This document shows, one piece after another, positions 8,004-60,147 of a DNA stretch of 64,000 bases. The notes beneath the pieces were generated by a model. It was not told the DNA's origin. It did not search any database and saw nothing but the letters and a program-made list of their open reading frames with translations. Source of the stretch: Mobula hypostoma (lineage: Eukaryota); assembly GCF_963921235.1 (NCBI RefSeq), contig NC_086108.1:92320001-92384000 (forward strand). The letters are read 5' to 3'. Both the position numbers and the translations under genes were made by a program. Every line of letters starts with the position of its first letter. Within the stretch, counting starts at the first letter, position 1.

Positions 8004-8114
8004 TTTTGGCGCAGGCGTGACCTGTACAAAAAGGACGGGTTACACTTGAATCCTAGGGGGACCAATATCCTGGCGGGGAGATTAGCGGGGGCTACTGAGG
8101 TGACTTTAAACTAG
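8004..8114 (+). pseudogene. CR1 ORF1 C-terminal remnant (SGNH esterase-like)
   Basis: FWRRRDLYKKDGLHLNPRGTNILAGRLAGATEVTLN*; DGLHL is the SGNH block V DxxH motif. Confidence 0.85.
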
Positions 8115-11100: not shown

Positions 11101-11151
11101 GTGGCTACAGGGGTCAGGGGGTATGGAGGGAAGGCTGGGGCGGGGTTCTGA
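8105..11151 (+). pseudogene. CR1 ORF2 (APE endonuclease + reverse transcriptase) with one frameshift and one nonsense codon
   Basis: NARS, ITETW, YRPP, GDFN and SDH (EN); YRPVSLTS, DFQKAFDKV, GVPQGSVLGP and KFADDTK (RT). 1-nt deletion at ~9365; TAG at 10153-10155 where the family has Trp. Confidence 0.93.
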
Positions 11152-23811: not shown

Positions 23812-24893
23812 TATAGACCAGAAGACCAGAAGATTTGGCCCATCAAGTCTGCTCCGCCATTCAATCATGGGCTGATCCGGTCACCCCCACTCCCCTGTCT
23901 TCTCCCCATACTATTTGATGCCCTGGCTAATCAAGAACCTAGCTATCTCTGCCTTAAATATACCCAATGACTTGGAATCCATAGCCGCTCATGGCAACAC
24001 AGATTTACCACCCTCTGACTAAAGTAATTTCTTCTCATCTCAGTACTAAATGGACATCCTTCAATTCTGAAGTCACGCCCTTTTGTCCTAGAATCCCCTA
24101 CCATGGGAAATAACTTTGCCATATCTAATCTGTTCAGGCCTTTTAACATTCGGGATATTTCTATGAGATCCCCCTCATTCTCCTGAACTCCGGGGAATAC
24201 AGCCCAAGAGCTGCCAGACGTTCCTCATATGGTAACCCTTTCATTCCTGGAATTATTCTCGTGAATCTTCTCTGAACCCTCTCCAATGTCAGTATATCCC
24301 TTATAAGGATATAAGTATATAAGGAGCCCAAAACTGCACACAATACTCCAAGTGTGGTCTCGCGAGTGCCTTATAGAGCCTCAACATCACATCCCTTCTC
24401 TTATATTCTAAACCTCTAGAAATGAATGCCAACATTGCATTTGCCTTCTTCACAACCAACTCATCCTGGAGGTTAACCTTTAGGGTATCTTGCACAAGGA
24501 CTCCCAAGTCCCTTTGCATCTATGCATTTTGAATTCTATCCCATCTATATAATAGTCTGCCTGTTTATTTCTTGCACTAAAGTGCATGATCATACACTTT
24601 CCAACATTGTATTTCATTTGCCACTTCTTTGCCTATTCCCCTAAACTATCTAATTCTCTCTGTAGGTTCTCTGTTTCCTCAACACTATCCGCTCCTTCAC
24701 CTATCTTTGTATCATTGGCAAACTTAGCCACAAATCCATTAATACTGTAGTCCAAATCATTCACATACATCGTAAAAAGCAGTGGTCCCAATACCAGCCC
24801 CTGTGGAACTCCACTGGTAACCGGCAGCCAGCCAGAATAGGATCCCTTTATTCCCACTCTCCATTTTCTGCCGACCAGCCAACTCTCCACCAT
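23812..24893 (-). mobile_element. CR1 LINE 3' fragment (RT C-terminus and UTR)
   Basis: GVPQGLVLGPLLF...KFANDTK and LYKALARPHLEYC; same subfamily as 31154-33620. Confidence 0.9.
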
Positions 24894-25014
24894 GATAGTA
24901 ACGATTAAAAATAACAGCATTATTATTGTTTTAATTTAATGGGATTTCTTACTTTAATTTATTTGAAATTTCCCTCAAATTATATTTATTGTTTGTATAC
25001 TGTACTTAAAGGTT

Positions 25015-25303
25015 TGGTGGCGGGGTGGAGATAAATCCCTACCAAAGGAGGTGTAAAGTGCTCCTTTCCTCCGCTAGCTTGCAGGTCACCCTTGGACAAG
25101 GTTTAGCATCTGCTTATACCCCCTCCCACCCCGAACAGGGTCAAGAGAAGTCATGGAAGCAGGTGGTGAGTGGTTGTATGAGCAGCTGGTGTAAATCACA
25201 AGGCCAGGTTATGCGACTACTGACACCAGGCAGATAATCTCTGAAGACTATTGATAATACTGGGGGTCACCTGTCTTGCAAGAGCACTGCCCAGAAGAAG
25301 GCA
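25015..25303 (+). mobile_element. SINE-like repeat (family of 4002-4360)
   Basis: Reverse-complement homology to 4090-4360. Confidence 0.55.
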
Positions 25304-27340
25304 TGAGCAAACATAAAGTGCAAAGGAGAGGCAAGAGTAGATATTGGACTACTGGAAAACAATGCTGGAGAGGTAGTATTGGGGGACAACGAAATGGCAG
25401 CGAAATATTTTGCATCAATCTTCACTGTGGAAGACACCAGCAGTATGGTGGAAGTTCCAGGTGTCAGGAGCCATGAAGTGTGTAATGTTACCGTAACTAG
25501 AGAGAAGGCTCTTCGGAAACTGAAAGGTCTGAAGGTGGATAAGTCATCTGGACCGGATAGGATACATCCCAGAGTTCTGAAAAAGGTAGCTGAAGAGATT
25601 TTTTAAATTCATTTACGGGATGTGCACATCGCCAGCTAAGCCAGAATTTATTGCCCATCTCTAGCTGCCCTTGAGAAGGTGGTGATGAGCTGCCTTCTTG
25701 ATCAGCTGTAGGTACACCCTCAGTGCTGTTAGGGATGGAATTCCATGATTTTGACCCAGCAACAATGAAGGAATGGGGATATGTTTCCAGGTCAGGATGG
25801 TGAGTGATTCCACAAGTCAGGATTGTGGAGGCATTAGTGATGATCTTTCAAGAAACACTAGATTAAGGAATGGTTCTGGAAGACTGGAAAATTGCAAATG
25901 TCACTCCACTCATCAAGAAGGGAGTCAGAAAAAAGGAAACTATAAGCCAGTTAGTTTGACCTCAGTGGTTGGAAAGATGCTGGAGTCAATTACTATTGAT
26001 GAGGTCTCAGGGTACTTGGAGGCACATGATAAAATGGGCTGTAGTCAGCATAGTTTCCTCAAGGGAAAATCTTGCCTGCCAAATCTGTTTGAATTCTCTG
26101 AAGAAATAACAAGCAGGATAGACAAAGGAGAATCAGTTGATGTTGTGTATTTGGATTTTCAGAAGGCCTTTGACAAGGTACCACATATGAGGCTGCTTAA
26201 CAAGCTTCGAGCCCGTGGTATTACAGGAAAGTTTCTAGCATCGCTAAAGCAGTGGCTGCTTGACAGGAAGCAAAAAGTGGAAATAAAGGGAGCTTTTTCT
26301 GGTTGGCTGCCAGTGACTAGTGGTGTTCCACAGGGGTCTGTGTTGGGACCGATTCTTTTTACACTTATGTCTATGATTTGGTGATGGAATAAATGGTTTT
26401 CTTGCAAAGTTTGCAGATGATATGAAGATAGGACGAGTGGCAAGTAGTTTTGAGGAAATAGAAAGGCTACAGAAGGACTTAGACAGATTAGGAGAATGGG
26501 CAATGAAATGGCAGATGGAATCTAGTGTCAGGAAGTGTATGGTCATGCATTTTGGTAGAAGAAATGAAAGGGTTGACTATTTTCTAGATGAAGAGAAAAT
26601 ACAAAATTCTGAGGTGCAAAAGGATTTGGGAGTCCTTATGCAAGATTCCCTAAAAGTTAATTTGCAGGTTGAGTCTGTGGTGAGGAAGATAAATGCAACG
26701 TTAGCATTCATTTCAAGAGGACTAGAATTTAAAAGCAAGGATGTAATGTCGAAACTTTATAAAGCACTGGTGAGGCCTCACTTAGAGTATAGTGAGCAGT
26801 TTAAGACCACATATCTTAGAAAGGATGTGCCGAAACTGGAGAGGGTTCAAAGGGGGTACACAAAAATGATTCCAGAATTGAATGGTTTGTCACATGAAGA
26901 GCATTTGATAGCTCTGGGCCGGTACTCGCTGGAATTCAGAAGAATGCGGGATGACCTTATTAATACCTATCAAATTGTCAAAGGCCTTGATAAAGAGAAT
27001 GTGGAGAGGATGTTTCCTATGGTGGAAGAGACTAAGACCAGAGGACACAGCCTCAGAGTAGAGGGGCTTCCTTTTAGAATGGAGATGAGGAATCTCTTTA
27101 GCCAGAGAGTGGTGAATCTGTGCAATTCTTTGCCACCGGCAGCTGTGGAGGCCAAGTCTGTATGTATATTTAAGGCAGAGGTTGATAGTTTCTTGATTGG
27201 TCAGGGCATGAAGGGATAGGAGATGAAGGCAGGAGATTGGGACTGAGAGGAAAATTGGATCTGCCATGATGAAATGGCAGAGTTGACTCGATGGGCCAGA
27301 TGGTCTAATTCTGTTCCTATACCTTATGGTCTTATGGTCT
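25304..27340 (+). mobile_element. CR1 LINE RT and 3' UTR, interrupted at 25601-25820 by another repeat
   Basis: RT motifs in ORFs 25379, 25773 and 26422; GATT duplicated either side of the insert (25597-25600 and 25821-25824). Confidence 0.9.
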
Positions 27341-30474: not shown

Positions 30475-33400
30475 TAAGACCATAATACCACAAAGTACAG
30501 GAGCAGGAGTAGGCCATTCAGCCCATCGAGACTACACCATTCAATCATAGAAACATAGAAACATAGAAACTAGGTACAGGAGTAGGCCATTCAGCCCTTT
30601 GAGCCTGCACCGCCATTCAGTATGATCATGGCTGATCATCCAACTCAGAACCCTGCACCAGCCTTCCCTCCATACCCCCTGATCCCTTTAGCCACAAGGG
30701 CCATATCTAACTCCCTCTTAAATATAGCCAATGAACTGGCCTCAACTGTTTCCTGTGGCAGAGAATTCCACAGATTCACCACTCTCTGTGTGAAGAAGTT
30801 TTTCCTAATCTCAGTCCTAAAAGGCTTCCCCTTTATCCTCAAACTGTGACCCCTCATTCTGGACTTCCCCAACATCGGGAACAATCTTCCTGCATCTAGC
30901 CTGTCCAATCCCTTTAGGATTTTATACGTTTTAATCAGATCCCCCCTCAATCTTCTAAATTCCAATGAGTATAAGCCTAGTTCATCCAGTCTTTCATCAT
31001 ATGAAAATCCTGCCATCCCAGGAATCAATCTGGTGAACCTTCTTTGTACTCTCCCTATGGCAAGGATGTCTTTCCTCAGATTAGGGGACCAAAACTGCAC
31101 ACAATACTCCAGGTGTGGTCTCACCAAGGCCTTGTACAACTGTAGTAGTACAGTCATAGGCTGATCTTCCAGTCATCCATACTCCCCTGTCTTCTCCCCA
31201 TACCATTTGATGCCATGACTAATCTAGAACCTATCTCTGCCTTAAATGCACAATGACTTGGCCTCCACACCCACTCGTAGCACAAATTCCACAGATCTAC
31301 CACCCTCTGAATAAAGTAATTTCTCCACATCTCTGTTTTAAATGGACGTCCTTCAATCCTGAAGTTGTGCCCTCTTGTCTTAGACTCTCCTACCATGGGA
31401 AATAACTTTTCCATATCTAATTTGCTCAGGCCTTTTAACATTCGGAATGTTCCTATGAGATCCCCCCCCCCCCCCCATTCTCCTGACCTCCAGGGAATAC
31501 AGCCCAAGAGCTGCCTGACGTTCCTCATACGGTAACCCTTTCATTCCTGGAATCATTCTCGTGAATCTTCTCTGAACCCTCTCCAATGTCAGTGTATCCT
31601 TTCTGAAATAAGGAGCCCAAAACTGCACACAATACTCCAAGTGTGGTCTCATGAGTGCCTTATAGAGCCTCAACATCACATCCCTTCTCTTATATTCTAT
31701 ACCTCTGGAAATGAATGCCAGCATTGCATTCGCCTTCTTCACCACTAACTCAACCTGGAGGTTAACCTTTAGGATATCTTGCATGAGGACTCCCAAGTCC
31801 CTTTGCATCTCTGTATTTTGAATTCTCTCCCCATCTAAGTAATAGTCTGCCCGTTTATTTCTTCCACTAAAGTGCATGACGATACACTTTCATTTGTATT
31901 TCATTTGCCTCTTCTTTGCCCATTCCCCTAAACTATCTAAGTCTCTCTGCAGGCTCTCTGTTTCCTCAAAACTACCCGTTCCTCCACCTATCTTTGTATC
32001 ATCGCCAAATTTAGCCACAAATCAATTAATCCCATATTTCAGTTCATTGCATACATCATAAAAATCAGCGGTCCCAACACCGACCCCTGTGGAACTCCAC
32101 TGGTAACTGGCAGCCAGCCAGAATAGGATCCCTTTATTCCCACTCTCTGTTTTCTGCCGATCAGCCAATGCTCCACCCATGCTAGTAACTTATCTGTAAT
32201 TCCATGGGTTCTTATCTTGCTAAGCAGCCTAATGTGTGGCACCTTGTCAAAGGCCTTCTGAAAATCCAAGTACACCACGACTACTGCATCTCCTTTGTTC
32301 ATCCTGCTTGTAATTTCCTCAAAGAATTGCAGTAGGTTAGTCAGGCAGGATTTTCCTTTCAGGAAACTATACAGACTTTGGCCTATCTTGTCATGTGCAT
32401 GCAGGTATTCCATAATCGCATCCCTAACAATCGATTCTAACAACTTCCCAACCATTGATGTCAGGCTAACAGGTCTATAGTTTCCTTTCTGCTATCTCCC
32501 ACCCTTCTTAAATAGTCGAGTAACATTTGCAATTTTCCAGTCATCCGGTACAATGCCAGAATCTATTGATTCTTGAAAGATCATTGTTAATGCCTCCACA
32601 ATCTCTCCAGCTACTTCCTTCAGAACCCAAGGGTGCATTCCTTCACAACCAGGAGACTTATCCACCCTCATACCATTAGGCTTCCTGTGCAATTTCTCAG
32701 TCGTAATTTTCACTGAACATACTTCACTTCCCTGACACTCTTGAATGTCCAGTATACTGCAGATGTCTTCCACTGTGAAGACTGATGCAAAACACACATT
32801 CAGTTCTTCTGCCATTTCTGTGTCTCTCATTACAATATCTTCCATGTCATTTTCTATTGGTCCTATTATCTACCCTCAATTGTCTTTTACACTTTATAAA
32901 ATTTCTTCTTTATATAAATAGTTTCTTTTCATAATTCATCTTTTCCTTCTTAAAGACCTCCTTAGTTTCCTTCTGCAAGTTTTTATAAGCTTCTCAATCC
33001 TCTATCTTCCTACTAGCTTTGGCTTCCTTGTATGCCCTCTGTTTTGCTTTTACTTTGGCTCTGACTTCACTTGTCAGCCATGGTAGCGTCCTTCTTCGAT
33101 TTGAAAATTTCTTCTTATTTGGAATATATCTGTCTTGCACTTCCCTCCTTTTTCGCAGAAACTCCAGCCATTGCTGCTCTGCTGTCCTTCCTGCCAGTGT
33201 CCCTCTCCAGTCAACCTTGGCCAGTTCCCCTCTCATGCCATTGTAATTTCCTTTATTCCACTGGAATACCGACACATTGGAATTTAGTTTCTCCTTCTCA
33301 AGTTTCAAAGTGAACTTGATCATATTGTGATCACTGTTCCCTTAGGGTTCCTTAACCTTAAGCTCTCTTATCACCTCCGGATCATTGCACAACACCCAAT

Positions 33401-33620
33401 CTGGTACAGCCGATCCCTAGTAGGCTCAAGAACAAGTTGTTCTAAAAAGCCATCCCTTCGACATTCTACAAATTCTCTCTCTTGAGGTCCAGTATCGGCC
33501 TGGTTTTCCCAATCTACTTTCATGTTAAAATCCCCAACGATTATCATGACACTGCCCTTCTGACACGCCTTTTCTATCTCCTGCTGTAATTTGTAATCCA
33601 TATCCCAGCTGCTGTTTTGA
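30475..33620 (-). mobile_element. Older CR1 LINE (partial EN, RT, UTR), multiply frameshifted
   Basis: IVGDFNMKVDW, DFQKAFDKVPH and GVPQGSVLGP in ORFs between 31380 and 33646. Confidence 0.92.
30551..31153 (-). mobile_element. Young 5'-truncated CR1 inserted in the 3' UTR of an older CR1
   Basis: Nearly identical to 10645-11245; (CATAGAAA)n tail on +; TCATAG duplicated at 30545-30550 and 31154-31159. Confidence 0.93.
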
Positions 33621-34274
33621 TTCAGGCCCACTGTGCTAATTGGCAATCACGCTTTAGCACCCGGATTTTAATATTTAAAGAGCACCTGAACTGAGAATCG
33701 GTGCACAATCATTAGCTCAACTTTAGTCAGTCTGCAATTGTGTTTTTTGAATTTCTGTCTTGTTCAGATTCTCGCCTAGTATTTAGTCAAGAACTCTGAT
33801 CTAGTATCAAAGTGGTTGTAGCTTATTTAATTCACAGTAATCTTGCCCTTTACCACCCACTACTCACCTACAAATGATTCACAAAGTACTGTGAGGACAA
33901 ATGCGTGGGGGTTGAATTAATACACCAGGGTTTTATCATAACATCACTAAGTTTGGCACTGTTCTGTCAGTACTTTTCATTTCTAAGACCGTTATGCTTG
34001 TTCAGGGCTGAGCAAAAATCTATCTGCATCAGGCAATGAAGACATTATTTTATTAAGGACTGTAGAAGTACAAGAAATTATTGCTTTATAAAAGGAATGT
34101 AAAGCATAACATTCTCAATAGGAAGTCCAAGGTTATGTCTTTGCAAAAGGTAAGTGCTGGAAAGGCTGTTTGATAGGATTCAGATTGAGTTTTGGTGAAC
34201 TGCATTTCAAGACTCCAAGGCCATGAACTGATTGTGTCTTCAACTGCTTCCTACAAACTAAGTAACGCCATATA

Positions 34275-35725
34275 TTCCATCTGGGTAGCATGAATATTGA
34301 TTTCTCCTTCCAGTAAAAAAAATCCCCCTGCCCCTTCCTCTATTCCCCTCTCTGACCTTTTACTTCTTCTCACCTACCTATCACTTCCCCCTGTGTCCCC
34401 TCCTCCTTCCCTTTCACCTGTGGTCCACTCTCCTCTCCTATCAGATTCCTTCTTCTCCAGCACTTTACCCTTCCCACCCACCTGGCTTCACCTATCACCA
34501 TCCAGCTAGCCTCCTTCCTCTCCCCCCACCTTTATATTCTAGTGTCTTCCCCCTTCCTTCTCAGTCCTAAAGGACGGTATTGGCCCAAAATGTCAAGTAT
34601 CTATTAATATCTATCGATTCTCCCTGAAGCTCAGAGACCTCGGCCATGAACCTGCCTTGTGCAGCTGGATCCTGGACTTCCTGTCAGATCACCAGCAGGT
34701 GGTAAGAGTGGGTTCCCTCACCTCCACCCCTCTGACTCTCAATACGGGAGCCCCTCAGGGCTGTGTTCTAAGCCCCCACCTTTACTTCCTGTATACCCAT
34801 GTCCCTGTCGCCACCCACAGCTATAATCTGCTAATTAAATTTGCCGACTGCACTACATTGATTGGCCTTATCTCAAACAATAACGAGGTGGCCTACAGGG
34901 AAGAAGTCATCTCTCTGACATAGTGGTGTCAAGAAAACAACCTCCCCCTCAATATCACAAAAACAAAGGAACTGGTTGTAGATTACAGGAGGAATGAGGA
35001 TGGGCTAATCCCTATTGACATCAATGGATCTGGGGTTGAGAGGGTAAACAGCTTTAACTCTTGACATCCACACCACCGAGGACCTAACATCGTCTGTACA
35101 CACCAGATGTGTGGTGCAAAAGGCACAACAGCGCCTCTTTCACCTCAGACGGTTGAGGACGTTTGGTATGGGCTCCCAAATCCTAGGAACTTTCTACAGG
35201 GGCACAACTGAGAGCATCCTGACTGGCTGCATCACTGCCCAGTATGGGAACTGTACCTCACTTATTTGCAGGACTGCAGAGAGTGGTGTGGACAGCCCAG
35301 TGCATCTGTAGTTGTGAACTTCCCATGATTCAGGACATTTACAAAGGCAGGTGTGTAAAAAGGGCCCTAGGATCACTGGCGACCTGAGTCACCCCAACCG
35401 CAGTCTATTCCAGCTGCTACCATCTGAGAAACAGTACTGCAGAATAAAAGCCAGGACAAACAGGCTCCTGGAACAGCTTCTTCCACCAGGACATCAGGCT
35501 GATTAACTCACGCTGATTTGAGTATATTCGATGTTACATCGACTGTTGTATTTATTATAAATAATTATAAATTACTATGATTGCACATTGCACATTTAGA
35601 CAGGGATGTAAGGTAAAGATTTTTACTCCTCATGTATGTGAAGGATGTAAGAAATAAAGTCAATTCAATATTCAATTCAATTCAATTCACCTGCTGAGTT
35701 CCTTCAGCATTTTGTGTGTGTTGCT
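34275..35725 (+). mobile_element. Penelope 3' fragment (34275-34627 and 35689-35725) split by a Rex1/Babar insertion
   Basis: Pyrimidine-rich UTR and decayed hammerhead; the terminus resumes CCTGCTGAGTTCC after the LINE tail. Confidence 0.7.
34628..35688 (+). mobile_element. Rex1/Babar LINE, 5'-truncated
   Basis: WILDFLSDHQQVVRVG...NTGAPQGCVLSP...KFAD; KAQQRLFHLRRL; (AATTC)n tail. Confidence 0.9.
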
Positions 35726-36552: not shown

Positions 36553-36789
36553 CATTTATTTAAGAACACACACAAAATGCTGGAGGAACTCAGCAGTGCA
36601 GGGAGGTATTTATGGAAAAGAATAAGCAGTCAACGTTTTGGGCCGAGACCCTTCCTCAGGACGTCAACTGCTTACTCTTTTCCGTAGGTGCTGCCTGGCC
36701 TGCTGAGTTCCTCCAGCATTTTGTGTGTGTTGCTTTGGATTTCCAGTTATCTGCAGGATTTCTCATGTTTGTAATCATTTCTTAAGAAC
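36553..36789. mobile_element. Miniature fold-back Penelope terminus
   Basis: Inverted ~70-bp arms around one hammerhead-like motif; degenerate flanking direct repeat CATTT(AT/C)TTAAGAAC. Confidence 0.8.
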
Positions 36790-39290: not shown

Positions 39291-39398
39291 AATGTAGCTT
39301 TTTACTGCCCAGATGCTATATCAGCCATTAATATCTGGTAAGTGTAAGTTGTTCTGTAGGTGAGTAACAGCACACATACCAGACATCATTAGCTGATC

Positions 39399-39532
39399 AT
39401 GAGGAATTCTGCAGATGCTGGAAATTCAAGCAACACACATCAAAGTTGCTGGTGAACGCAGCAGGCCAGGCAGCATCTCTAGGAAGAGGTACAGTCATCG
39501 TTTCGGGCCGAGACCCCTTCGTCAGGACACTT
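39399..39532 (-). mobile_element. 134-bp Penelope terminal insertion with 13-bp TSD
   Basis: TCATTAGCTGATC at 39386-39398 and 39533-39545; body nearly identical to 53331-53458. Confidence 0.88.
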
Positions 39533-39864
39533 TCATTAGCTGATCCCCAGTCAGAGTGGTCATTTCTAGCTTTGAAGTAAATCTAATTTCAAAATATGGA
39601 TCCATCTGAGGAACTTCACTACTCAAAGAACCAATGGGAATGTGTAAGGTCAGAAGACTATAAGACCTATGAGCAAAATTAGGTCATTCAGACTAGCCAT
39701 TTGATCATGACTGATTTATTTTCCCACTCAACCTCATTCTTCTGCCTTCTCTCCATAACCTTTGATGCCCTTACTAATCAAGAACCTGTCAACCTCCACT
39801 TTAAATATACCGAATGATTCCATAGCTATATGTGGGAATAAACTCTATAGATTCACCACCTTCT

Positions 39865-40750: not shown

Positions 40751-41408
40751 GATAGCTTCACTCAACTTCACTTGCCCCATCACTGAACTGATTCCACAAC
40801 CTATGGACTCACCATTAAGGACTCTTCACCTCATGTTCTTGATATTTATTGCTTGTTTATTTACTATTATTATTTCTTTTTTTTTCTTTTGTATTTGCAC
40901 AATTTGTTGTCTTTTGCACACAGGTTGTCCACCCTGTGGGTGCAGTCTTTCACTGATTTTGTTCTGGTTATTGGATTTATTGAGTACCGTTCATTCAATT
41001 ATGCTGGCTGCTTTACTGAGGCCCAAGAATATAGCTTACAGAAAGATCTAAAGAGAGGGCCACTCAACAGCTGACTTCAACACCTTTTCTCACACTCATG
41101 GTTCTTCTAGAACTGCAGGAAGCTAACTTGCACTTTATTTCTCCAGATGTCAAAGCATCTTGTCACAGGAACACCATGACTATTTTATGATGGGCCCAGA
41201 TCTATTAATCATAAAGTTTCTTAAATTCTCTAAGATATCTTTTCTTAGAGTGACTGATGGATTTAGCGAGAAAGATTTGCGTTTCCCAGAACTTGCTCTC
41301 CAAATTCTTGTAACAATGAAAATTATTCGTATTTGCCGCATCACATGACATGGATGATCAAGGTCTTTCCATAACCATGATTGTTCTTGGCAAATTTTTC
41401 TACGGAAG

Positions 41409-41913
41409 GCAGCATCCTGGTAAATCTCCTCTTTATCCTTTCCAATGCTTCCACATCCTTCCTATAGTGAGGTGACCAGAGCTGGACACAGTACTCCAAG
41501 TGTGGCCTAACAAGAGTTTTATAGAGCTGCATCATTACACCGTGCCTCTTAAACTCTGTCCTTCGACTTATGAAAGCTAACACTCCATAAGCTTTCTTAA
41601 CTACCCTATCTACTTTCAGGGATCTGTGGACATGTACCCCCAGATCCCTCTGCTCCTCCACACTACCAAGTACCCTGCCATTTACTTTGTACTCTGCCTT
41701 GGAGTTTGTCCTTCCAAAGTGCACCACCTCACACTTCTCCAGGTTGAACTCCATCTGCCATTTCTCAGCCCACTTCTGCATCCTATCAATGTCTCTCTGC
41801 AATCTTCGACAATCCTCTACACTATCTACAACACCACCAACCTTTGTGTCATCTGCAAACTTGCCAACCCACCCTTCTACCCCCACATCCAGGTCGTTAA
41901 TAAAAATCACGAA
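41409..41913 (-). mobile_element. CR1 RT fragment (different subfamily)
   Basis: FINDLDVGVEGWVGKFADDTKVGG...LYKTLVRPHLEYC. Confidence 0.9.
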
Positions 41914-42746
41914 AAGTTATGAATGCTTCATCTTGGCCTCTTGCACTCACAATGGTCCAATGGTTCAATTTAATATCAGAGAATGTGTACAGAATGCAAC
42001 CTGAAATCCTTGCTCTTTGCAGACATCCACAAAACAAGAAAAAATGCCAAAGGATGAATGACAGAAAATGTTAGAACCCCAAATTGCCCCCGCCCCACAT
42101 ATCAAACAGCAACAAAAGCATCAACTCTCCCCTCCCCCCACTTGCTCCTGCAAAAGCATCAGCCCCCACCACCCACCGTGCAATCAACAGCAAAGCCCCC
42201 CAGAGACCATGAACTAGAGAAAATCAAAAACTACTGTCCATCCCAACACATTGACATCTCAGACAGGCTCTCCCTTTCACTAGCGAGAGAAAGAGAGATC
42301 GCTCCTACAACAGATGAGCGGGAGACAAATCACCATTATTGACAGAGCGTTTGTTCTTGGAGTGACCTCCACTTCCCGTTGGCTGTATAATTTCCCACCA
42401 CCACCTGTATCTAGATGTGGCAGAGCATTGATTTGATCTGCTGGCTGTGAAATAGTTTAGCTGCTGTTATCACACTCTTAAACAGAGCTTTTATATAAGA
42501 TGAACTATTGACTTCACAATCTAACTTGTTATGATCTTGCACTTTGTAATTTACCTCCACTTTCTCTGTAGTTGTTACACTTTATTCTGCAATGTTATTG
42601 TTTTACCTTCAATGCACTGTGTAATGATTTTGATCTGTATGAACAGTAAACAAGACAAGCTTTTCACTGTATCTTGGTACATATGACAATAATAAACTAA
42701 TTCCAATATCCTATCTATTGCATGTTCTTTTTGCTAATTAGCACCT

Positions 42747-45465: not shown

Positions 45466-46129
45466 TGAAATTGCGGAGGTAGGAAATTTTTTTTTAAACT
45501 TTGTGTTTGGAGGAAAGTATAGAGGAGATAGCAGAGGTCGTTTTTGTTACACAAAAAGTGGTGGTGGTGAAGGCAGATACATTACAGGCCACTAACAGAC
45601 TCTTAGGTAGGCACATGGATGATAGAAAAATGGAGGGCTATGTGGGAGAGAAGGGTTAGGTTGGTCTTAGAGTAGATTAAAAGGTCAGCACAACCTCTTG
45701 TGTGCCGAATAAGCTGTTCTGTGCTGTACCGTTCTGTGTTCTATACATGTTCAGCGATATGTGTGAGCTGGCAAAAAATTATTGTCTAATTTGCGCATAA
45801 GAACAAATAGCATCTTTTCTTATTATCTGTAAATTATTCTTTAAACATTATGATGGGTTTTGATTGACTGAATTATGCTATCTGATGCCAATGGTTCCCA
45901 TAGGAATCACCATCTTGCCAGCCACGCAAAGCAGCTCACTCTAGACTTCCGAGCAAGCACAGTGAAAGGTGGAAGTTCAAAACAAGCAGGTCATGTGACA
46001 ACCCACCTGACTGCTCGACGGTGCAGCTAAACCCGCAGCAAGAATGTGATTAACCCATGGTAACCAAATACCGTCGCACACGGATATGGAGGCATTTGGT
46101 TGTGATGGGCGAATTGCACTCTTGCTACA

Positions 46130-46590
46130 GATGTAGCAAGATTCTTGCCAAAGTCATTGTCCAACAGATTGCAGATGCTGTCGATGTGCGCTTGTGGAAG
46201 GAGCAAGATGGCTTCAGGAAAAACAGAGGCTGTGTTGACCAGACCTTCACGCTGCATAACATCATAGAGCAGTGCACCGAGTGGCAGGGACAAATGTACG
46301 TAAATTTTGTGGACTATGAAAAGGCTTTTGATAACATCCAAACAGAGAGCCTCTGGCAAATTCTCAGATCATAAGGGAGCCCTTCCAAAATTGACCAGTT
46401 TATCCAGAGTTTCTTTGTAATTTTATCTGCACAGTTGGGGACTGCAATTTTAGCTTTGAAGTCAAGACAAGAGTCAGGCAAAGCTGTGTAATGTCAGCGA
46501 TATTGTTTAATCTGGTGATTAACTGGGTTATGAGGAAAACAACAAAAGATAAGCAGAGAAACATTAGGTGGACTCTACTCCCTACTTAAG
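46130..46590 (+). mobile_element. RTE-clade LINE RT fragment
   Basis: SKILAKVI...EQDGFRKNRGCVDQTFTLHNIIEQCTEWQ...YVNFVDYEKAFD. Confidence 0.85.
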
Positions 46591-51446: not shown

Positions 51447-51834
51447 CATTAGATCTATCATACCAAGGCCATTGACAATACAGAAGCATACCATCACAAT
51501 GCAAAAGGGAGATCTCAGCTTGAACCTCTACAACTATGAACAAGCATATCTCAGTGTTTATGTTGACAAACTGCAGATGCTGGAAATCCAAGCAACACAC
51601 ACAAAAGGTCTGAGGAACTCAGCAGGCCAGGCAGCATCTATAGAAAAAAAGAACAGTTGACGTTTTGGCAGGACATTTATGTTGACATTTCTTTTAGAGG
51701 AAAGCAGTGATTGTATGTCAATTTGTACCAATTTGCCTTTATAATCCATGATCTAAAATACACTTTATTTAGACTTTTAAATCCCTAGATGTCAGAATCA
51801 ACCCAGCCCTTTCAAAGGTATGAAATGTCAAAAC

Positions 51835-51965: not shown

Positions 51966-54150
51966 ATCCTGGCTGGAAAATTTGGACTTCTGGTGAAGTT
52001 ACAACATTAAACAAAAGCAGGTAACTGTGCTGCTTATGGGTACAGGAGCAGACCGTTTGGCCCCAAAGGACTGTACGCCATTCAAATTTCAATGTAAATT
52101 TATTATCCAAGTTTGTATATGTCACCATTTACTACCTTGGGATTCACCTCCTTGCAGGCATTCACAATAGAACAAAGAAATACAATAGATTTAATGAAAA
52201 GCTACACAAAAAATTGACAACTAACGTGTTAAGACAAACTGTTCAGATACAACATTTTTAAAAATCATAATAAATAAATAATACTGAAAACTTTAGTTGT
52301 AGATTCCTCAAAAGTGAGCCCATGGGTAGTGGAATCAGTTCAGAGTTGAGGTGAGTGAAGCTATCCATGCTGGTTCAGGAGCCTAATGGTTGAAGGTAAC
52401 AACGGTTACTGAATCTGGTGGTATGGGACCTAAGGCTCCTGTACCTCCTTCCTGATGACAACAGCAAGAAGAGAGCATGGCCTGGATGGTGGGCGTCCTT
52501 GATGGTGGATGCTGCTTCCCTGTGCCAGTGTTCCCTGTAGATGTGCTCAATGGTGAGCTCATTGAGATTGCACCTGACCTATCCCCTAACTTCACTCGAC
52601 CTTATCCCAAAGTACACTTGATTGGTTAAAAACATATTGCACCTCTCTCAGATTTTAGATTAATACTGACCTAACGTCAACTGTCATTTACAAATAAGAA
52701 TTTCAGTTTCTCCCACACTTTTGATTCCTTATTTCTCTCCAAACTGTTGGGATCATATTGAATGTCCAAGTTGGGGTGAATGGCTTCTTTTCACGCTGGG
52801 TGACTCTAAATTGTGTATTGATTTAAACAGTTCTTGTCCATGAGTTTCAAAATTAATTTTGCATTACCAACAATAAAGTTCCAATTGGGATTTGCCTCTC
52901 AGTCAAATGGAGACTACTATTTCAACATACTTCATTTTAAATATTTTTCTGAATATCTGGAAATTTCTCAGCATTTGATTCCAATGAATTTGCATTCCCT
53001 TACATGTTTCTCAAGTCAGAATTTTCTTTTTTATTATTATCTAGATACCTGCAGCACAGAATATCAGTTCTTCAAGCCACACCACTAAGCATTCCTCAAT
53101 TTAACCCTAGCCCAATCAGCAGACAATTTACAATGACCAAATAACCTACTAACCAGTATGTCTTTGGACTACGGAAGGAAACTGGAGCACCCAGAGAAAG
53201 CACACAGGCTCGTGGGGAGGACGTACAAACTCCGAACTGAACTCCGAACTCCAACGCCCCAAGTTGTAATAGTGTCGCGCTAACTGTTACACTACTGTGG
53301 CAAACCAATGTCATGCAGACAACGCAAACACGAGGAATTCTGCAGATGCTGGAAATTCAAGCAAAACACATCAAAGTTGCTGGTGAACGCAGCAGGCCAG
53401 GCAGCATCTCTAGGAAGAGGTACGGTCGACGTTTCGGGCCGAGACCCTTTGTCAGGACTAACCGAAGGAAGAGTTAGTAAGAGATCTGAAAGTGGGAGGG
53501 GAAGGGGTAGATCCAAAATGATAGGAGAAGACAGGGGAGGGGGGGGATGGAGCCAAGAGCTGGACAGGAGATTGGCAAAAGGGATATGAGAGGATCATGG
53601 GACAGGAGGCCCAGGGAGAAGAAAAAGGAGGAGGGGGGAAAAAAAGCCCCAGACGATGGGCAAGGGGTATAGTCAGAGGGACAGAGGGAGAAAAAGGAGA
53701 GAGAGAGAAAGAATGTGTGTATATAAATAAATAACGGATGGGGTACAAGGGGAAGATGGGGCATTAGCGGAAGTTCATGCCATCAGGTTAGAGGCTACCC
53801 AGACGGAATATAAGGTGTTGTTCCTCCAACCTGAGTGTGGCTTCATCTTTACAGTAGAGGAGGCCGTGGATAGACATATCAGAATGGGAATGGGATGTGG
53901 AATTAAAATGTGTGGCCACTGGGAGATCCTGCTTTCTCTGGCGGACAGAGCGTAGGTGTTCAGCAAAACAATCTCCCAGTCTGCGTCGGGTCTCGCCAAT
54001 ATATAGGCCACATCGGGAGCACTGTATTCAGTATATCACCCCAGCCGACTCACAGGTGAAGTGTCACCTCACCTGGGAGGACTGTCTGGGTCCCTGAATG
54101 GTGGTAAGAGAGGAAGTGTAAGGGCATGTGTAGCACATGTTCCACTTACA

Positions 54151-54600
54151 TCCCCCCCATCCCTCCCCACTGATCTCCCTCCTGGCACTTATCCTTGTAA
54201 GCGGAACGAGTGCTACACATGCCCTTACACTTCCTCTCTTACCACCATTCAGGGCCCCAGACAGTCCTTCCAGGTGAGGCGACACTTCACCTGTGAGTCG
54301 GCTGGGGTGATATACTGCGTCCGGTGCTCCCGATGTGGCCTTTTATATATTGGCGAGACCCGACGCAGACTGGGAGACCGCTTTGCTGAACACCTACGCT
54401 CTGTCTGCCAGAGAAAGCAGGATCTCCCAGTGGCCACACATTTTAATTCCACATCCCATTCCCATTCTGACATGTCTATCCACGGCCTCCTCTACTGTAA
54501 AGATGAAGCCACACACAGGTTGGAGGAACAACACCTTGTATTCCGTCTGGGTAGCCTCCAACCTGATGGCATGAACATCGACTTCTCTAACTTCCGCTAA
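54151..54600 (+). pseudogene. Penelope ORF C-terminus: Cys-rich linker and GIY-YIG endonuclease (5'-truncated)
   Basis: CKRNECYTC...GVIYCVRCSRCGLLYIGETRRRLGDRFAEH...VATHFN...LEEQHLVFRLGSLQPDGMN. Confidence 0.9.
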
Positions 54601-54895
54601 TGCCCCACCTCCCCCTCGTACCCCATCTGTTACTTATTTTTATACACACATTCTTTCTCTCTCCTTTCTCTCCCTCTGTCCCTCTAACTATACCCCTTGC
54701 CCATCCTCTGGGTTTTCCCCCCCTCCCCCTTTTCCTTCTCCCTGGGCCTCCCGTCCCATGATCCTCTCATATCCCTTTTGCCAATCACCTGTCCAGCTCC
54801 CGGCTCCATCCCTCCCCCTCCTGTCTTCTCCTATCATTTTGGATCTCCCCCTCCCCCTCCCACTTTCAAATCTCTTACCAGCTCTTCCTTCAGTT

Positions 54896-54931
54896 AGTCC
54901 TGACGAAGGGTCTCGGCCCGAAACGTCGACC
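54896..54931 (+). ncRNA. Minimal type I hammerhead ribozyme motif
   Basis: aGUC-CUGACGA-aGGG(ucucgg)CCC-GAAAC-GUC/GAC: both core boxes, stem II, palindromic ACGU stem III, GUC triplet and stem I GUC:GAC. Confidence 0.8.
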
Positions 54932-56168
54932 GTACCTCTTCCTAGAGATGCTGCCTGGCCTGCTGCGTTCACCAGCAACTTTGATGTGTGTTGTCATGCA
55001 GACAATCCTCCATGTAAATAACTCAGCTGAGAACTGAAAAAAATCACTCAGCAAGGTAACCAAGGTGAGAAATAGAACTCACAGTGTAATAGATGTCTAC
55101 TGCTGTCTTTATTTTCTTCTTCATAAGATGCAATTGAGACAACAGCCAAAGTATCTATATCAATACTGATAAGTGAGAAATGTTTCTGAGAAGTGGCTAA
55201 GATGGCATAACTCCATCTGCTCGTGTTCAATCAACTGCTTCAAGTACTGTCTGTGTGGAGTTTGCACATTCTATCATGACAGCGCAGGTTTGCTCCAGGT
55301 GCTCTAGGCTTCCCCAACATCCCAAAGACCTGTGTGTTGGTAGATTATCTGGCCATTATAAATTGTCTCTCATGTAGGTTGATGGTAGAATCTGCGGATA
55401 ATTGCTGGGAATGTAAGGCGAATATAAAATGATACCAGTGTAAATGAGTGCTTGAGGATTGGCATGAATTTGGTGGGCCAGAGGTCTATATGACTCCATG
55501 GTTTATCCACCTACCTTTACTCTCTGACACTCAATGGCCCATTGGCTCACAAAACAAATTAATACTCCTACACTTTCCTGTCAGAGGAAATCTTTGCTTA
55601 ATGCTATTTTATCCTAGAACTAGAGTCAACCAGGTTCACCCTGAAGAGGAGGCTGGTGAGAGTGAGGCAGAGTAAAGTTCAAAGTTCAAAGTAAATTTAT
55701 TATCAGAGTAGTATATGTCACCATATACTACTGTGAGATTCAATTTCTTGCAGGCAATCACAAAAAAAAATGACTGCAAGTAAGTGAATCTCAGAGTAGA
55801 GTTAAACAGCGGTAGTCCATCCTTGAACCATCTTGAAGCTTTGACCTCTGGCTAATGGCCACAAAATAGTTCCCTTATGCTATTTTCCCAGACTCAGTTC
55901 CAGCACCAACCCTGACTTTGTTACAATCATTTTTCACAAAACACGGTCAGCTTTCCCTTGCTAATTTTGGACCACCGCAGTTAAAGGTATAATGCCATTG
56001 ATCTAATGGTTCACATATTGTCAAGCTGTTTGCTGTGCACGTGATAACTAACTAGTCTGCAAGAAAATGTTATATCTATTTTCAATAATTCAACATTAAA
56101 AATTATTCTGTAAATATCAATTCAATGTAGATTATAGATCTGCTTATACAAATAGCATTTTAACTCCA

Positions 56169-56282
56169 TTTATTTTATTAATAGACAAGGAAAATAGACT
56201 AGTTGACAGATTTCTTAATATTTCTTGGAGAGATTTATACTAGAGTTTATGCCCACACGTCATTGACTTCAGTCAGTTTATT
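56169..56282 (-). terminator. Candidate RWDD3 polyadenylation signals
   Basis: AATAAA on the minus strand at 56277-56282, 56174-56179 and 56169-56174, 100-220 nt after the stop codon. Confidence 0.5.
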
Positions 56283-56384: not shown

Positions 56385-56490
56385 TTAGAACCGTACAAAC
56401 TTGTCATAGAGGTCAGATAAACCCAGAGCCTCAAATTCTTGGTGTAACTCACACCCCGATGTAAATTCTTTCACAGAAAAGCTTGTAAGC
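56385..56490 (-). CDS. RWDD3: RWDD3 coding exon 4 (terminal)
   Basis: Acceptor tccattttAG. Encodes (R)LTSFSVKEFTSGCELHQEFEALGLSDLYDKFVRF*, similar to human [32 protein letters not shown]. Total CDS 780 nt, 259 aa. Confidence 0.92.
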
Positions 56491-56601
56491 CTAAAATGGA
56501 AATAGATTATTTTTAAATCAATAACTTTCACGCAATATTCAGATTGAACCTATTAATCTGTTCTGACACTCCAGAATGCGATGTCCATTGATGGGTTTTA
56601 C

Positions 56602-56717
56602 CTAACGTGCTCTGCTTGAAGTTTTTCTTCATAAAGAACACTGATCATCTTTTCTTTGCATCTTTTTCCACTGGAATCCACATCCACCTTGGTGGTTTTC
56701 TGAAGAACAAGATACTC
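56602..56717 (-). CDS. RWDD3: RWDD3 coding exon 3
   Basis: Encodes [38 protein letters not shown](R); human [30 protein letters not shown] acceptor at 56719-56718, donor AG|GTAAAA, phases consistent. Confidence 0.95.
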
Positions 56718-57415
56718 CTTCCATTTTAAAAACAAAATAAAAACATAAGTTAAGTTACAAAGCAGAAGGCAGAGATAGCATTTCAGCTATGTAATTTTAA
56801 AAACAGCTGATAGTGAATTTTCTCAACTCTTGGCCTTTGCTAGATCATTTTTAACAGTAAGGCTATTTCAAAGGAATTTAATGTAACAGAGCACCACATT
56901 GATCTGCAGAGTATACACTCATCTCCAACAGATGTATTAGCATCAAATTCAGAATGGCAGGCAGAAATAAACTGCAATGTTCCAAATAATTCAACAACTT
57001 TATCATGTGCTGACATCAAGCTTGGTACTGATTGTGCTGATCTTGGCTGGGTTGGTACAAGGGCAACAAGTAATTCCGACACCTTCAGATTTGCCGAAAG
57101 GATTTGTTATCATGTGCAACTTCTTGAAGTCCCGGTGTCAGGGAAATACAGAACCCAGACTTATCTCAACACGAGTTTTACAGAGAATCCAGTAGCAAGG
57201 AAACACCACCCTCTGGGCCTCACCTGCTTTCACCTGCCATGTGCCAACTGGTACTCCTTCCCCTCCCCCCCACCTTCTTATTCTGGCATTTGCAGAATCT
57301 TTTGTGTTTGCCCTTTGGGACTGCCTGATTGTGAATATTGGCAAGTAAAGGAATGTAGCATGACTGAAACGAAGGTGTATATCACATCACATCACTGAGA
57401 ATGAAACAATAATAC

Positions 57416-57900
57416 CTTGATATCTTTTCTCTCCCCTTGCAGAAGAATTAGTATGAGTTTGCCCATGAACATCAGCCTTCCTGTGAGTCTTAGGTCAGAA
57501 GTCCATTTTTCTATGCTCCTAATGTACTTTGCTTTGGCTCTCATGTGATCTAAATGCAAAAGAGCCATCCACGTGCCGTCGCCTGCATTACCCTGGTTCC
57601 GCTGGTTGTCACCTTCATCAGCCTTGCCTGCTGTTGGTTGGCCCAGGCTGTTCTCAAAGTTCTGTTGTAGCCACATCATTAGCTCATAAACCATGGGCTG
57701 GGAAAGAAGAGTCATTGCATACTGCTGCAAGTCCCATTTCAAATCAGAGCACTGTTCACGGCTGAGTTGATCTGAGCTGATGGAGACATCTGGCAGGCAG
57801 TTCGGGTAGCCAGGGGGCAACTGAAAGGTAACCTTCAACTGGATTTTCCTTGCCTGGCGTTCATAGGTCTCACCGATTTGGAAAGTAATCCCTTCAGATT
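57416..57900 (-). CDS. RWDD3: RWDD3 coding exon 2 (RWD domain)
   Basis: Acceptor tgtattgcAG. Encodes ESEGITFQIG...FQLPPGYPNCLPDVSISSDQLSREQC...PMVYELMMWLQQN...LLHLDHMRAKAKYIRSIEKWTSDLRLTGRLMFMGKLILILLQGERKDIK, matching vertebrate RWDD3. Donor AAG|GTATT. Confidence 0.96.
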
Positions 57901-58169: not shown

Positions 58170-58800
58170 AAACACAAGAGATCCCGCAGATGCTGGAAAT
58201 TTAGAGCAAGACATGCAAAATGCTGGAGGAACTATTTTTCCATTCCTCGTTCTGACCGTTCCTTACCCCTTTTTTCCTCACTTGTCCATCACCTCCCACT
58301 AGTACCCCTCCCCCTTGCTTTTCTCCCATGGTGTTATCCGCTCCAGTCCGATTCCTTTTTTTCCCCCTGTCGTTTACCTCCTCCGCCTATCATTCCCAAG
58401 CTTCTCAGTTCACCCACCTCCCTCCCCACTCACTTGGCTTCAGCTGTCACTTGCCAGCACTTACAACCTTCCCCTTCCCTGCTTTATTATTCTGGCTTCT
58501 TACCCCATGCTTTCCGTCTTGACGAAGGGTCGCTGCCTGAAACGTCGACTGTTTATTCCTCTCCATAGATGCTGCCTGACCTGCTGAATTCCTCCAGCAT
58601 TTTGTGTGGGTTATTCCGGATTTCCAGCATCTGCAGAATCTAAGCACAAGAAAGTCTGCAGATGCAGGAAATCCAAAGCAAAACACAAAAAAATGCTGGA
58701 GAAACTCAGCAGGTCAGGCAGCATCTATGGAAATTAATAAACAGTCGACGTTTCTTTGGGACTGAAAAGGAAGGTGGTGGGAGGGGAAGGAGGCTGTTTA
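58170..58800. mobile_element. Alternating-orientation Penelope terminal fragments in RWDD3 intron 1
   Basis: Minus 58170-58232, plus 58235-58640, minus 58644-58800; a further fold-back at 59585-59770. Confidence 0.75.
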
Positions 58801-60147
58801 GAAGGTGATAAGGGAGAGTACGTGGTCAAAGAGTCGAAGGGCAGCAGAGATCATAGAGGAAGAGCAGTTGAGAGAGGGTTTCACCTAACTCCCATTGAAG
58901 AGAAGACTTAAGATCTGCAGAATCACTTGTGTTTATGAACAGTCTTCCTAGTGTCTTAGCTAACACTCAGCACTTGGCCAACATCTTCAGAAGCAATTAA
59001 TTTCTAATATTTGGAGGAGTCAGTTTTGCTTCAGATCTGAAATGCACTGTATTGCATTCTGTCATTAAAGGATCGGCCCAGCTGGATTTTGTTCTCAAGC
59101 CTAATGAATGTGACCACCCACCTCCCGCTCAAGAGATAAAAAAAATAAGGGTGACATTTATTGGATTTAAATTTCTAAATGTGGCAGCTTGGTCTGAGGA
59201 CTTTGCAATTCCACCTACGACCTAATGCATCTCCTGTCATAGAGCACGACACCACAGATGCAGGCAGTTCAGCTCGTCTAGTCCGTGCCAAACTCCTATT
59301 CTGCCTTGTCCCATCAAATCGCACCTGGACCATAGGCCTTCACCGCCCCACCCCATCCATGTACATATCCAAACTTCTCTTACATGCTGCTGCCTTAGGT
59401 GTCGCTCAACTTCCTTGCTAAATGCTATCCACCTGGTAATGTCCTGGCCTATAGCACTGGTGTAGCAGCAGGACAAGACTACTAACAGAGAGGAATATGA
59501 ACAAACCCCATGACAGCAGCTACAGGATTTAAATTCAAGTAAATATCTAAATCAGATAATTAGCAGTTCATTTTAATTAGTAACTCACACAAAATGCTGG
59601 AGGAACTCAGGCAGCATCTGTGGAGAGGAATAAAAAAAATGATGTTTCAGGCAGGTGCCTCTCAGCTTGAAATGTGGGCTCTTTATCCCCTCCATAGATG
59701 CTGCCTGACCTGACCCCAGTATTTTGTGTGTGTTTCTCTGGATTTCCAGTATCTGCAGAATCTCTTGTATCTGTTCTACTAATGTCCTACAGGGAAGGAA
59801 ATCTTTAACCCACCTAAATTGAGACTACATTACACCTCCAGACCACTTCACTACCTTCATGAAATGTATGTACCAGTAAGGAATAAACAGTGAACATCAG
59901 TGTGCTTGCGGACTTCATGGTTGATAAAATTAATTCCTAAAATAAATATCAACAATGCACATTCCTCATCTGTGTTGCAGCCCAGAATTTGAAAGCTACA
60001 GATCTTGGAGTGAACCCTCCTTGAGCCTCAAACCCCACACAAAGAAGAACCCGAACTCTACTCTCTCTCTGCACACTAGCTCCCAGTGCAAATGGGACTA
60101 GTTCAGATCCGCATCTTGATCAGCATGGACCGGTCGAGCTGAAGAAA

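Follow-up and report, generated by a model that had tools for sequence, protein, structure and literature searches.

A head-to-head Penelope-like element insertion downstream of RWDD3 in the ray Mobula hypostoma, likely copied in one event from two related templates

The analysis covered a window of 64,000 nucleotides of Mobula hypostoma (GCF_963921235.1, NC_086108.1:92,320,001-92,384,000, forward strand), and all coordinates given here are positions within it. On its minus strand lies RWDD3, identified by a match to the RWD domain and by two out of two PDB matches being RWD domain-containing protein 3. The adjacent segment 53309-55005 is a real structure, namely a dead Penelope-like element (PLE) insertion of an ordinary kind in the ray genome, to which no function was assigned (Table 1). 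In particular, one 14-bp target-site duplication (TSD) encloses two 5′-truncated PLE copies with their 3′ ends facing outward, so that an inverted truncated copy adjoins the 5′ end of the other, as is typical of PLEs. A direct partial tandem (pseudo-LTR) was not found in this copy, nor is it expected with both copies so short, since it applies to full-length insertions. Furthermore, four more outward-facing PLE pairs, all older, were present in the same window.

The inverted arms described in an earlier note on this DNA were recovered by aligning them to each other. However, the 45 bp between them, which the note had taken for a spacer, turned out to be element sequence belonging to the right copy: they translate in frame and align with the RT-EN linker of ray PLE proteins, and the right copy therefore reaches 45 nt further 5′ than the left one. 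The perfect 14-bp TSD was confirmed as two identical 14-mers, a match with a chance expectation of ~1e-5 (60x60 start positions). As matches of family contigs extend into the repeat by 2 nt on either side (53321 and 54993), the TSD of 14 bp carries a 2-nt ambiguity at both borders.

Table 1. Features of the PLE insertion and of the neighbouring RWDD3 gene (positions within the window)
Feature	Position	Strand	Basis
Left TSD copy; final 2 nt shared with the tail end of the element	53309..53322	.	100% identity; loose ends at 53321
Tail, 41 nt, one-sided: unpaired 3′ extension of left copy, between two presumed RT start sites	53323..53363	-	Alignment
Left arm: 5′-truncated PLE copy (part of EN, 3′ UTR, terminal repeat); three stops in frame, deletions of 3 and 15 nt	53364..54150	-	Arm alignment, translation
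Candidate minimal hammerhead motif of left arm, with G8-to-A change in catalytic core	53424..53459	-	By eye against PMC4209133
Unpaired 5′ overhang of right copy: in-frame RT-EN linker; loop of predicted hairpin	54151..54195	+	Family contig loose ends at 54149, 54151
Open frame without start: CX4CxxC linker and GIY-YIG endonuclease, two cysteines between VIY and YIG	54151..54600	+	
Right arm: 5′-truncated PLE copy, stops at inner 3′ end, without tail	54196..54991	+	Repeat search, alignment
Candidate minimal hammerhead motif of right arm, core intact; allele common to both arms disrupts fourth pair of stem I	54896..54931	+	By eye against PMC4209133
Right TSD copy; opening 2 nt shared with the continuation of the element	54992..55005	.	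Loose ends at 54993
RWDD3 downstream region, four AATAAA hexamers (56277, 56169, 55696, 55108)	55108..56282	-	
RWDD3 last coding exon, stop at 56385-56387	56385..56490	-	
RWDD3 penultimate exon, upper boundary approximate; followed by GT-AG intron 56491-56601	56602..56715	-	
RWDD3 RWD-domain exon, boundaries approximate	57413..57900	-	

The GIY-YIG frame reported earlier for the right arm was indeed open, up to a stop at 54598-54600. Its match to the Pfam GIY-YIG family was weak (E 5e-4, below the curated cut-off), and it displays the pattern VIY-CxxC-xx-C...YIG with histidines downstream, that is, the CCHH motif of endonuclease-bearing PLEs, which is defined together with the CX2-5CxxC linker in PMC8557442 (excerpt). 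Upstream of GIY-YIG, a CX4CxxC linker, characteristic of Neptune/Nematis, was found both in this frame and in the ray proteins. The element does not fit the strict Penelope/Poseidon clade, which lacks the CX2-5CxxC linker present here; the linker motif, rather than any database name, points to a putative placement in Neptune/Nematis. The reverse transcriptase (RT) is absent from the truncated copy, while relatives (64-94% identity) extend upstream into a YIDD-type motif, and protein P0012 carries PF00078. The PLE proteins of rays and sharks, including P0001 of Mobula hypostoma (94%), P0002 of Hypanus sabinus (90%) and P0006 of Rhincodon typus (64%), share linker and endonuclease sequence with the right-arm frame and represent the same or sister families; these records are unnamed host annotations containing RT-thumb sequence, unlike the right-arm fragment. 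The latter, having neither start nor reverse transcriptase and showing private amino-acid changes, is no working gene.

The tail, overlooked in the earlier note, is present on the left copy only and was counted as the one-end PLE tail (30-40 nt), as defined in PMC8557442 and PMC11167929 (excerpts). It was also found in other copies of the window, e.g. at 39398-39528. Moreover, the candidate hammerhead motifs were readable by eye against PMC4209133, including the core, the extra base before stem II, the G10.1-C11.1 pair and the palindromic helix III. A search of Rfam over the window gave 0 matches at the gathering score and no hammerhead match, and 3 out of 3 terminal-repeat pieces folded as monomers no better than their shuffles, a poor monomer fold being unsurprising in a motif active as a dimer.

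In L1 twin priming, both target ends prime within one TSD, mostly on non-overlapping parts of one RNA. An L1-type twin-primed inversion was rejected here, since each arm spans all 777 aligned positions and the element's 3′ 790 nt are thus present twice. The combination of inverted truncated copy, tail and target duplication is instead the published signature of endonuclease-bearing PLEs, and the layout is already known. The canonical unit comprises an inverted 5′-truncated copy joined at the 5′ end, a 30-40-nt tail at one end and a hammerhead in the terminal repeat (PMC8557442, excerpt), and in Adineta vaga both Pen2a_Av and the scaffold-304 Pen2 derivative have one TSD of 8-10 bp around the whole unit (PMC3846280, excerpt). 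The ray insertion shares with the canonical unit the inverted truncated copy, the one-sided tail, the single TSD and, putatively, the hammerhead motif, but differs in that both copies are ~0.83 kb long, with no full ORF and no direct partial tandem, the TSD is 14 bp, the tail is 41 nt and the arms are 5.4% apart.

This divergence corresponds to 42 substitutions in 777 aligned columns, 18 of them in the 387 coding columns, in agreement with the ~15-20 coding substitutions estimated earlier by eye. The 15-nt and 3-nt deletions noted at that time in the left arm were likewise found, the left arm having gaps of 3, 15 and 1 nt and the right arm gaps of 4, 4 and 2 nt. All three in-frame stops and both coding deletions lie in the left arm. 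Overall, derived changes were assigned to the left arm at 23 sites and to the right arm at 7 (p=0.005), with 12 of the 42 sites unpolarised, and A/T lies on the left arm at 26 of 32 transitions (p=0.0005); however, the arms being inverted, a strand-biased mutation process alone would skew this transition count. The skew persisted when clusters were collapsed (19 vs. 7, p=0.029) and when five calls depending on one outgroup protein were left out (18 vs. 7, p=0.043), but was not significant for transversions alone (7 vs. 1, p=0.07), for the coding part alone (12 vs. 5, p=0.14) or for polarity taken from read frequencies alone (8 vs. 4, p=0.39; 40 of 247 variant rows listed), and it would vanish if all 12 unpolarised sites were right-derived (23 vs. 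19, p=0.64). The flanks differ by 1.7-1.8% between organisms A and B, and the right-arm divergence (0.9-2.4%) fits an age near the split of these two, while that of the left arm (3.0-4.5%) does not. Differences diagnostic of subfamilies were also considered, since alleles at 54378 and 54381, one per arm, dominate organism D, and were discarded as being within chance by a rough estimate.

Both outer junctions were present in public contigs of organism A from run X1, a DNA run possibly of the assembly's own sample, and run X5, from a different sample and study. The right junction was also found in organism B, a related species, for which the contigs listed included none at the left junction. In organism D, almost no cover was obtained at 55092-55235 and the left contig ends at 53140. 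The empty site (53322 joined to 55006) was absent among the 15 of 2,964 joints listed, and gaps in coverage prove nothing in this respect. A fold-back chimera of the assembly is extremely unlikely: assemblers are known to struggle with inverted PLE units (PMC8557442, excerpt) and none of the 32 of 402,409 contig pieces listed spans the central junction or the whole element, but the arms differ by 5.4% and six gaps, unlike a fold-back read, and in contigs from two samples of organism A either flank continues into the element in the orientation of the assembly, with 0-4 differences. The family is abundant, as indicated by 340,778 X1 contigs aligned to the window, which is not a copy number. Exact-pattern scans of metagenome and viral contigs gave 0 matches, and none of the 107 pattern matches from a protein scan of metagenome contigs was confirmed.

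The insertion as one event, as the earlier note had proposed, was supported by the one TSD around both arms, the one-sided tail, the 2-nt microhomology at either end and a pair of rare alleles carried by both arms, at 53424/54931 (~2% of the X1 family depth) and 54109/54237 (~10%). Two sequential insertions, with an older left copy having its own TSD and a younger right copy landing exactly at its 5′ junction, would explain why the arms are unequally decayed, and a PLE nuclease can cut inside its own terminal repeat (PMC11167929, excerpt). Nevertheless, they would require a hit precisely between the 5′ end and the TSD, where no extra duplication was found (54150/54151), and a second template carrying the same two rare alleles; moreover, outward-facing pairs recur four more times in the window, and this course of events is thus very unlikely.

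As the arms share two rare alleles and yet the left one is more decayed, a single insertion from two related but non-identical templates appears likely. Overall, a probability of about 0.6 was given to the reading, likely but not proven, that an abundant endonuclease-bearing PLE of Neptune/Nematis type inserted in a single event from two such templates. The earlier suggestion of two transcripts thus receives moderate support from the unequal decay, but not from the cleanest subsets, which were not significant. The shared rare alleles fit one template, or gene conversion between the arms, equally with two sister templates. With one template, the two arms would go back to the same RNA sequence, unless one of them was formed when the first cDNA folded back or primed itself; the 42 differences would all postdate the insertion, their uneven distribution being due to chance, methylation or strand-biased mutation. 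Besides the shared alleles and the non-significant subsets, this agrees with the intact 14-bp TSD, to be expected with a probability of 0.46 at 2.7% decay per copy, with the two 5′ ends being only 45 nt apart in the element, and with the self-priming proposed for PLE inverted junctions (PMC3846280, excerpt). It is nonetheless an unlikely origin given the overall skew, with both coding deletions, 3/3 stops and 7/8 polarised transversions on the left; furthermore, a simple fold-back gives no left-only tail unless the first product was longer, and a palindrome at the junction was not found. Conversion after a single event, with the right arm overwritten by a younger copy or patches homogenised between the arms, would account for the right arm's greater similarity to the family majority and its higher G+C (53.5% vs. 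51.0%) and CpG (26 vs. 19), and for both shared rare alleles sitting in long identical stretches. However, the longest identical run between the arms (84 nt) is within chance (p=0.18) and was rejected as a sign of conversion, and an outside donor would have to carry the same two rare alleles ~700 nt apart, which makes conversion quite improbable.

How PLEs make inverted pairs is still described as undefined in PMC8557442 (excerpt). In the case of the Poseidon element of Anolis carolinensis (PAc), the purified protein, a predicted dimer, cuts and extends both strands in vitro; reverse transcription starts at two internal sites bracketing the tail, their spacing giving the tail, and the ribozyme is dispensable for insertion (PMC11167929, excerpt). 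Priming from either end of a staggered cut, as the earlier note had envisaged, is consistent with these in vitro data, and for the ray locus we infer it only. PAc belongs to Penelope/Poseidon, without the CX2-5CxxC linker of the ray element, and its start sites are not homologous to the cut DNA (PMC11167929, excerpt), in contrast to the 2-nt microhomology at each end in the ray. Under the preferred reading of one event and two templates, the GIY-YIG nuclease of the element would nick both strands ~14 nt apart, and each free 3′ end would pair by 2 nt with element RNA and be extended, one from the inner and the other from the outer start site. Both cDNAs would end after ~830-840 nt, and a head-to-head junction between them would form with 0-2 nt of microhomology. 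With less certainty, the left template may have been an already decayed copy from the same small sub-lineage, and the templates may have been a pair of units within a single tandem transcript or two separate RNAs bound by a dimeric protein.

Regarding the neighbouring gene, the polyadenylation signals of RWDD3 had been placed ~1.2 kb from the insertion; two hexamers do lie 1272 and 1164 nt away, but two others are nearer (691 and 103 nt). Transcripts of RWDD3, if running through, must fold into a predicted hairpin of ~770 bp with ten helices of at least 30 bp. Three plant-miRNA Rfam matches below the gathering score reflect this hairpin only. X5 contigs were found over either flank and across the two outer junctions, and X5 is probably an RNA run, as it appears to contain spliced RWDD3 mRNA. 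Such cover is a weak hint of the read-through hairpin proposed earlier, whose fold would be certain upon transcription, but not of its strand or of a single spanning transcript, as the contigs carry no strand and include no single spanning molecule. The lack of X5 cover at 56676-56800, which includes intron sequence, was not counted as evidence, as the filter may cause such holes. The changes tallied in X5 (A>G 11, T>C 20) equalled those in the DNA run X1 (12 and 20), being dominated by other copies of the family, from which contigs of the arms are indistinguishable, and are uninformative on editing at 53309-55005.

The single locus matters little, being one of very many copies with a published layout, and its value is that of a data point; arms sharing rare alleles but unequally decayed, if pooled over thousands of ray insertions, would separate one-template from two-template models. 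In a literature search covering few subscription papers, no report was found on the template number in inverted PLE pairs or on PLE-derived dsRNA in rays, and nothing on inverted insertions was found in the excerpt of bioRxiv 10.64898/2026.07.22.740005. As a speculative and rather doubtful extension, every head-to-head PLE insertion might come from two RNA templates (one possibly dead, in trans), ray units might be a standing source of long, near-perfect dsRNA under host read-through, and the RWDD3 hairpin might be edited or diced and have been tolerated since before the two ray species split. Inverted Alu pairs in 3′ UTRs form ADAR substrates and arise by separate insertions; if the read-through is true, ray PLE pairs would be their counterpart as endogenous double-stranded RNA. 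In transgenic flies, siRNAs map to the inverted regions of Drosophila Penelope inverted-repeat copies (PMC3681739, excerpt); long inverted repeats made by Penelope insertion can yield dsRNA, as the ray pair might, while in the ray, a vertebrate, the driver would be host read-through.

The two Penelope-like element (PLE) copies beside RWDD3 were enclosed by an exact 14-mer direct repeat (53309-53322 and 54992-55005), such pairs near both element ends having a chance expectation of ~1e-5, and the perfect 14-bp TSD described in the earlier note was thus found. The arms (53364-54150 on the minus strand and 54196-54991 on the plus strand) differed by 42 substitutions in 777 aligned columns and by six gaps, 32 of the substitutions being transitions; the coding part held 18 substitutions in 387 columns, within the 15-20 previously counted by eye. 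The 45-bp spacer of the earlier note was not sustained, since 54151-54195 aligned with ray PLE proteins and translated in frame with the right arm, so that the right copy is 841 nt long. The left copy had 828 nt, counting a 41-nt extension (53323-53363) absent from the right one. Compared with the window, family contigs of the runs stopped matching at 53321 and 54993, so that 2 nt at each end of the duplication could equally belong to the element. Around the central junction they broke at 54149 and 54151, which makes a microhomology of 0-2 nt possible. The structure is real, and nothing sets it apart from the ordinary insertions that endonuclease-bearing PLEs make, here in the genome of a ray.

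Among 32 protein matches, the best two of the right-arm peptide were an unnamed Mobula hypostoma protein (P0001, 94% identity) and a Hypanus sabinus protein (90%). The right-arm open frame, with neither a start nor an RT, carried CX4CxxC and, downstream of it, a GIY-YIG nuclease (weak Pfam match) whose half-motifs have two cysteines between them; the left arm had three in-frame stops. Since, according to PMC8557442, a linker of the CX2-5CxxC type is a mark of the Neptune and Nematis clades that Penelope/Poseidon lacks, the label 'Penelope' used before is correct in the wide sense only. A minimal hammerhead motif, matching the description in PMC4209133, was located at the end of each arm, with a G8-to-A core change in the left one, while Rfam detected neither motif. 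In addition, stem I of the hammerhead has its fourth pair disrupted by a rare allele that the two arms share. Insertion occurred despite these alterations, which agrees with the in vitro finding that the ribozyme is not needed (PMC11167929). Element sequence also appeared inside the ray gene models P0004, P0005, P0026 and P0120, which bear the names of host genes (divergent protein kinase domain 1C, mucin-2, chitinase domain-containing 1 and SRP14); these models may thus have been annotated from exonised copies or from read-through.

Four public sequencing runs were compared as contigs. Those of X1 (organism A, DNA by guess and possibly the assembly's own sample) covered 53157-53346 and 54969-55700 with 0 differences and reached 24 and 23 element-specific bases past the duplication, which is below the 31-letter rule but at the place where contigs end when they run into a repeat. 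The contigs of X5 (organism A, a different sample and study) reached 28 and 27 bases into the element. Moreover, an X9 contig from organism B (54969-55702) showed 13 differences, so that the right junction is older than the split of A and B, whose flanks diverged by 1.7-1.8%. Among the 32 pieces listed of 402,409, neither the left junction in organism B, nor the junctions in organism D (6.4% diverged), nor the central junction, nor an empty site was seen.

The architecture is already known. In published descriptions, a PLE 5' end is often adjoined by an inverted 5'-truncated copy and a tail of 30-40 bp often occurs at one end only (PMC8557442), inverted units have surrounding duplications of 8-10 bp (PMC3846280), and inverted pLTRs and 3' extensions are curation features (PMC8969392). 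Six other window regions with older relatives were checked for inverted pairs, four of which had outward-facing pairs and one no pair at threshold. A further copy at 58642 adjoined the 58179-58641 pair tail to tail. Two short single copies with tails were also present: one of the same young family (39386-39545; 131 nt, 95% to the left arm), with an exact 13-bp duplication around it and its 5' end at the hammerhead motif, and one older relative (51557-51687) with an exact 12-bp duplication. Decayed LINE fragments (8099-11148, 24636-27216, 32042-33646, 35048-35308, 41344-41916 and 46054-46371) gave Pfam matches to endonuclease, RT or ALKBH8_N-like, and in the 111 of 128 long frames scanned no host-gene domain other than RWD was found, bar a weak zinc-finger match (5314-5583).

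Positions of inverted pairs, hammerhead motifs and X5 contig cover in the window
Feature	Position	Remark
Outward-facing pair	2364-3014	older relatives
Outward-facing pair	36565-36731	older relatives
Outward-facing pair	58179-58641	older relatives
Outward-facing pair	59579-59737	older relatives
Inward-facing (tail-to-tail) pair	20553-20689	old terminal fragments; rarer orientation
Hammerhead motif, right arm	54896-54931	
Hammerhead motif, left arm	53424-53459	
X5 contig cover	55681-56494	mean word depth 26, not expression level
X5 contig cover	54965-55702	mean word depth 11, not expression level
X5 contig cover	52500-53350	mean word depth 15, not expression level

Both arms had C at 54931 / G at 53424, where ~98% of the X1 family depth has another base, and T at 54237 / A at 54109, where ~90% differs. 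These two shared rare alleles, together with the single duplication, connect both arms with a single source lineage and make sequential insertion unlikely, in agreement with the one insertion event proposed earlier. Polarity was assigned at 30 of the 42 substitutions from read frequencies (12 sites, on the basis of 40 of 247 variant rows listed), ray proteins, two other copies in the window and the P0001 read-through tail, the other 12 having no direction. Derived changes at the 30 polarised sites numbered 23 in the left arm and 7 in the right (p=0.005), a skew that persisted when the five sites polarised by P0001 alone were left out (p=0.043) and when clustered changes were collapsed (p=0.029). 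Furthermore, of the 32 transitions, 26 had A or T in the left arm (p=0.0005). This argues for two related but non-identical templates, with a probability of roughly 0.6, and the earlier suggestion of two transcripts is favoured to that extent. Identical templates that decayed unevenly after insertion are a less likely source of the skew, with which the non-significant subsets agree, namely polarity by read frequency alone (8 vs. 4, left vs. right, p=0.39), the coding part alone (12 vs. 5, p=0.14) and CpG losses (10 vs. 3, p=0.09). Setting all 12 undirected sites as right-derived also removed the skew (p=0.64), and strand-biased mutation could skew the transitions because the arms lie on opposite strands. 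However, not only is the whole set left-heavy, but transversions lean the same way as transitions (7 vs. 1, p=0.07).

In PMC11167929, a PLE protein cuts and extends both strands and starts at two internal sites flanking the tail, a dimer being predicted. A comparable course may be proposed for the element, in which nicks staggered by ~14 nt would have left free 3' ends, each pairing with element RNA over 2 nt. RT would have started at the inner site on the right and at the outer site on the left, the latter giving the left copy its tail, and both cDNAs would have stopped in the RT-EN linker region before being joined. Either a single RNA carrying tandem units or a dimer with two RNAs bound would be compatible with this course. 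The element is unlike the product of L1 twin priming, whose two parts are different segments of a single RNA. Among the papers listed in a literature search, there was no test of template number in inverted PLE pairs and no report of PLE-derived dsRNA in rays. The value of the element is modest and comes from two questions, namely different RNAs for the arms, which is likely, and RWDD3 transcripts through the element, for which there is a weak hint.

RWDD3 lies on the minus strand. Its stop codon is at 56385-56387, and between there and the element stand four AATAAA hexamers. Contigs of X5 (RNA by guess) broke at 56494 and 56630, the exact points where spliced and unspliced last-intron paths part and rejoin in 31-letter words, and bin depths required an extra junction piece at ~40-fold, while the DNA run X1 was unbroken across this intron; we therefore infer that X5 holds spliced RWDD3 mRNA. 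The 111-nt intron (56491-56601) appeared both spliced (~40-fold) and unspliced (27-fold) in X5, and its retention is possible. The X5 cover fits transcription beyond all four hexamers and out of the far side of the element, a weak hint from one run with strandless contigs and no single molecule across the element; given the unspliced intron, pre-mRNA or DNA carry-over could also be its source. If transcribed, 1,669 nt in the RWDD3 sense are predicted to fold with 770 pairs (-1,574 kcal/mol) and ten helices of at least 30 bp, so the long dsRNA hairpin anticipated earlier is upheld as a predicted fold, with read-through only hinted at. A published study reportedly treats RNA editing across animals. 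Penelope inverted repeats are able to give siRNA in Drosophila (PMC3681739). Finally, the AATAAA at 55696 derives from a high-copy repeat fragment (55693-55799), within which two small adjacent inverted repeats were found.
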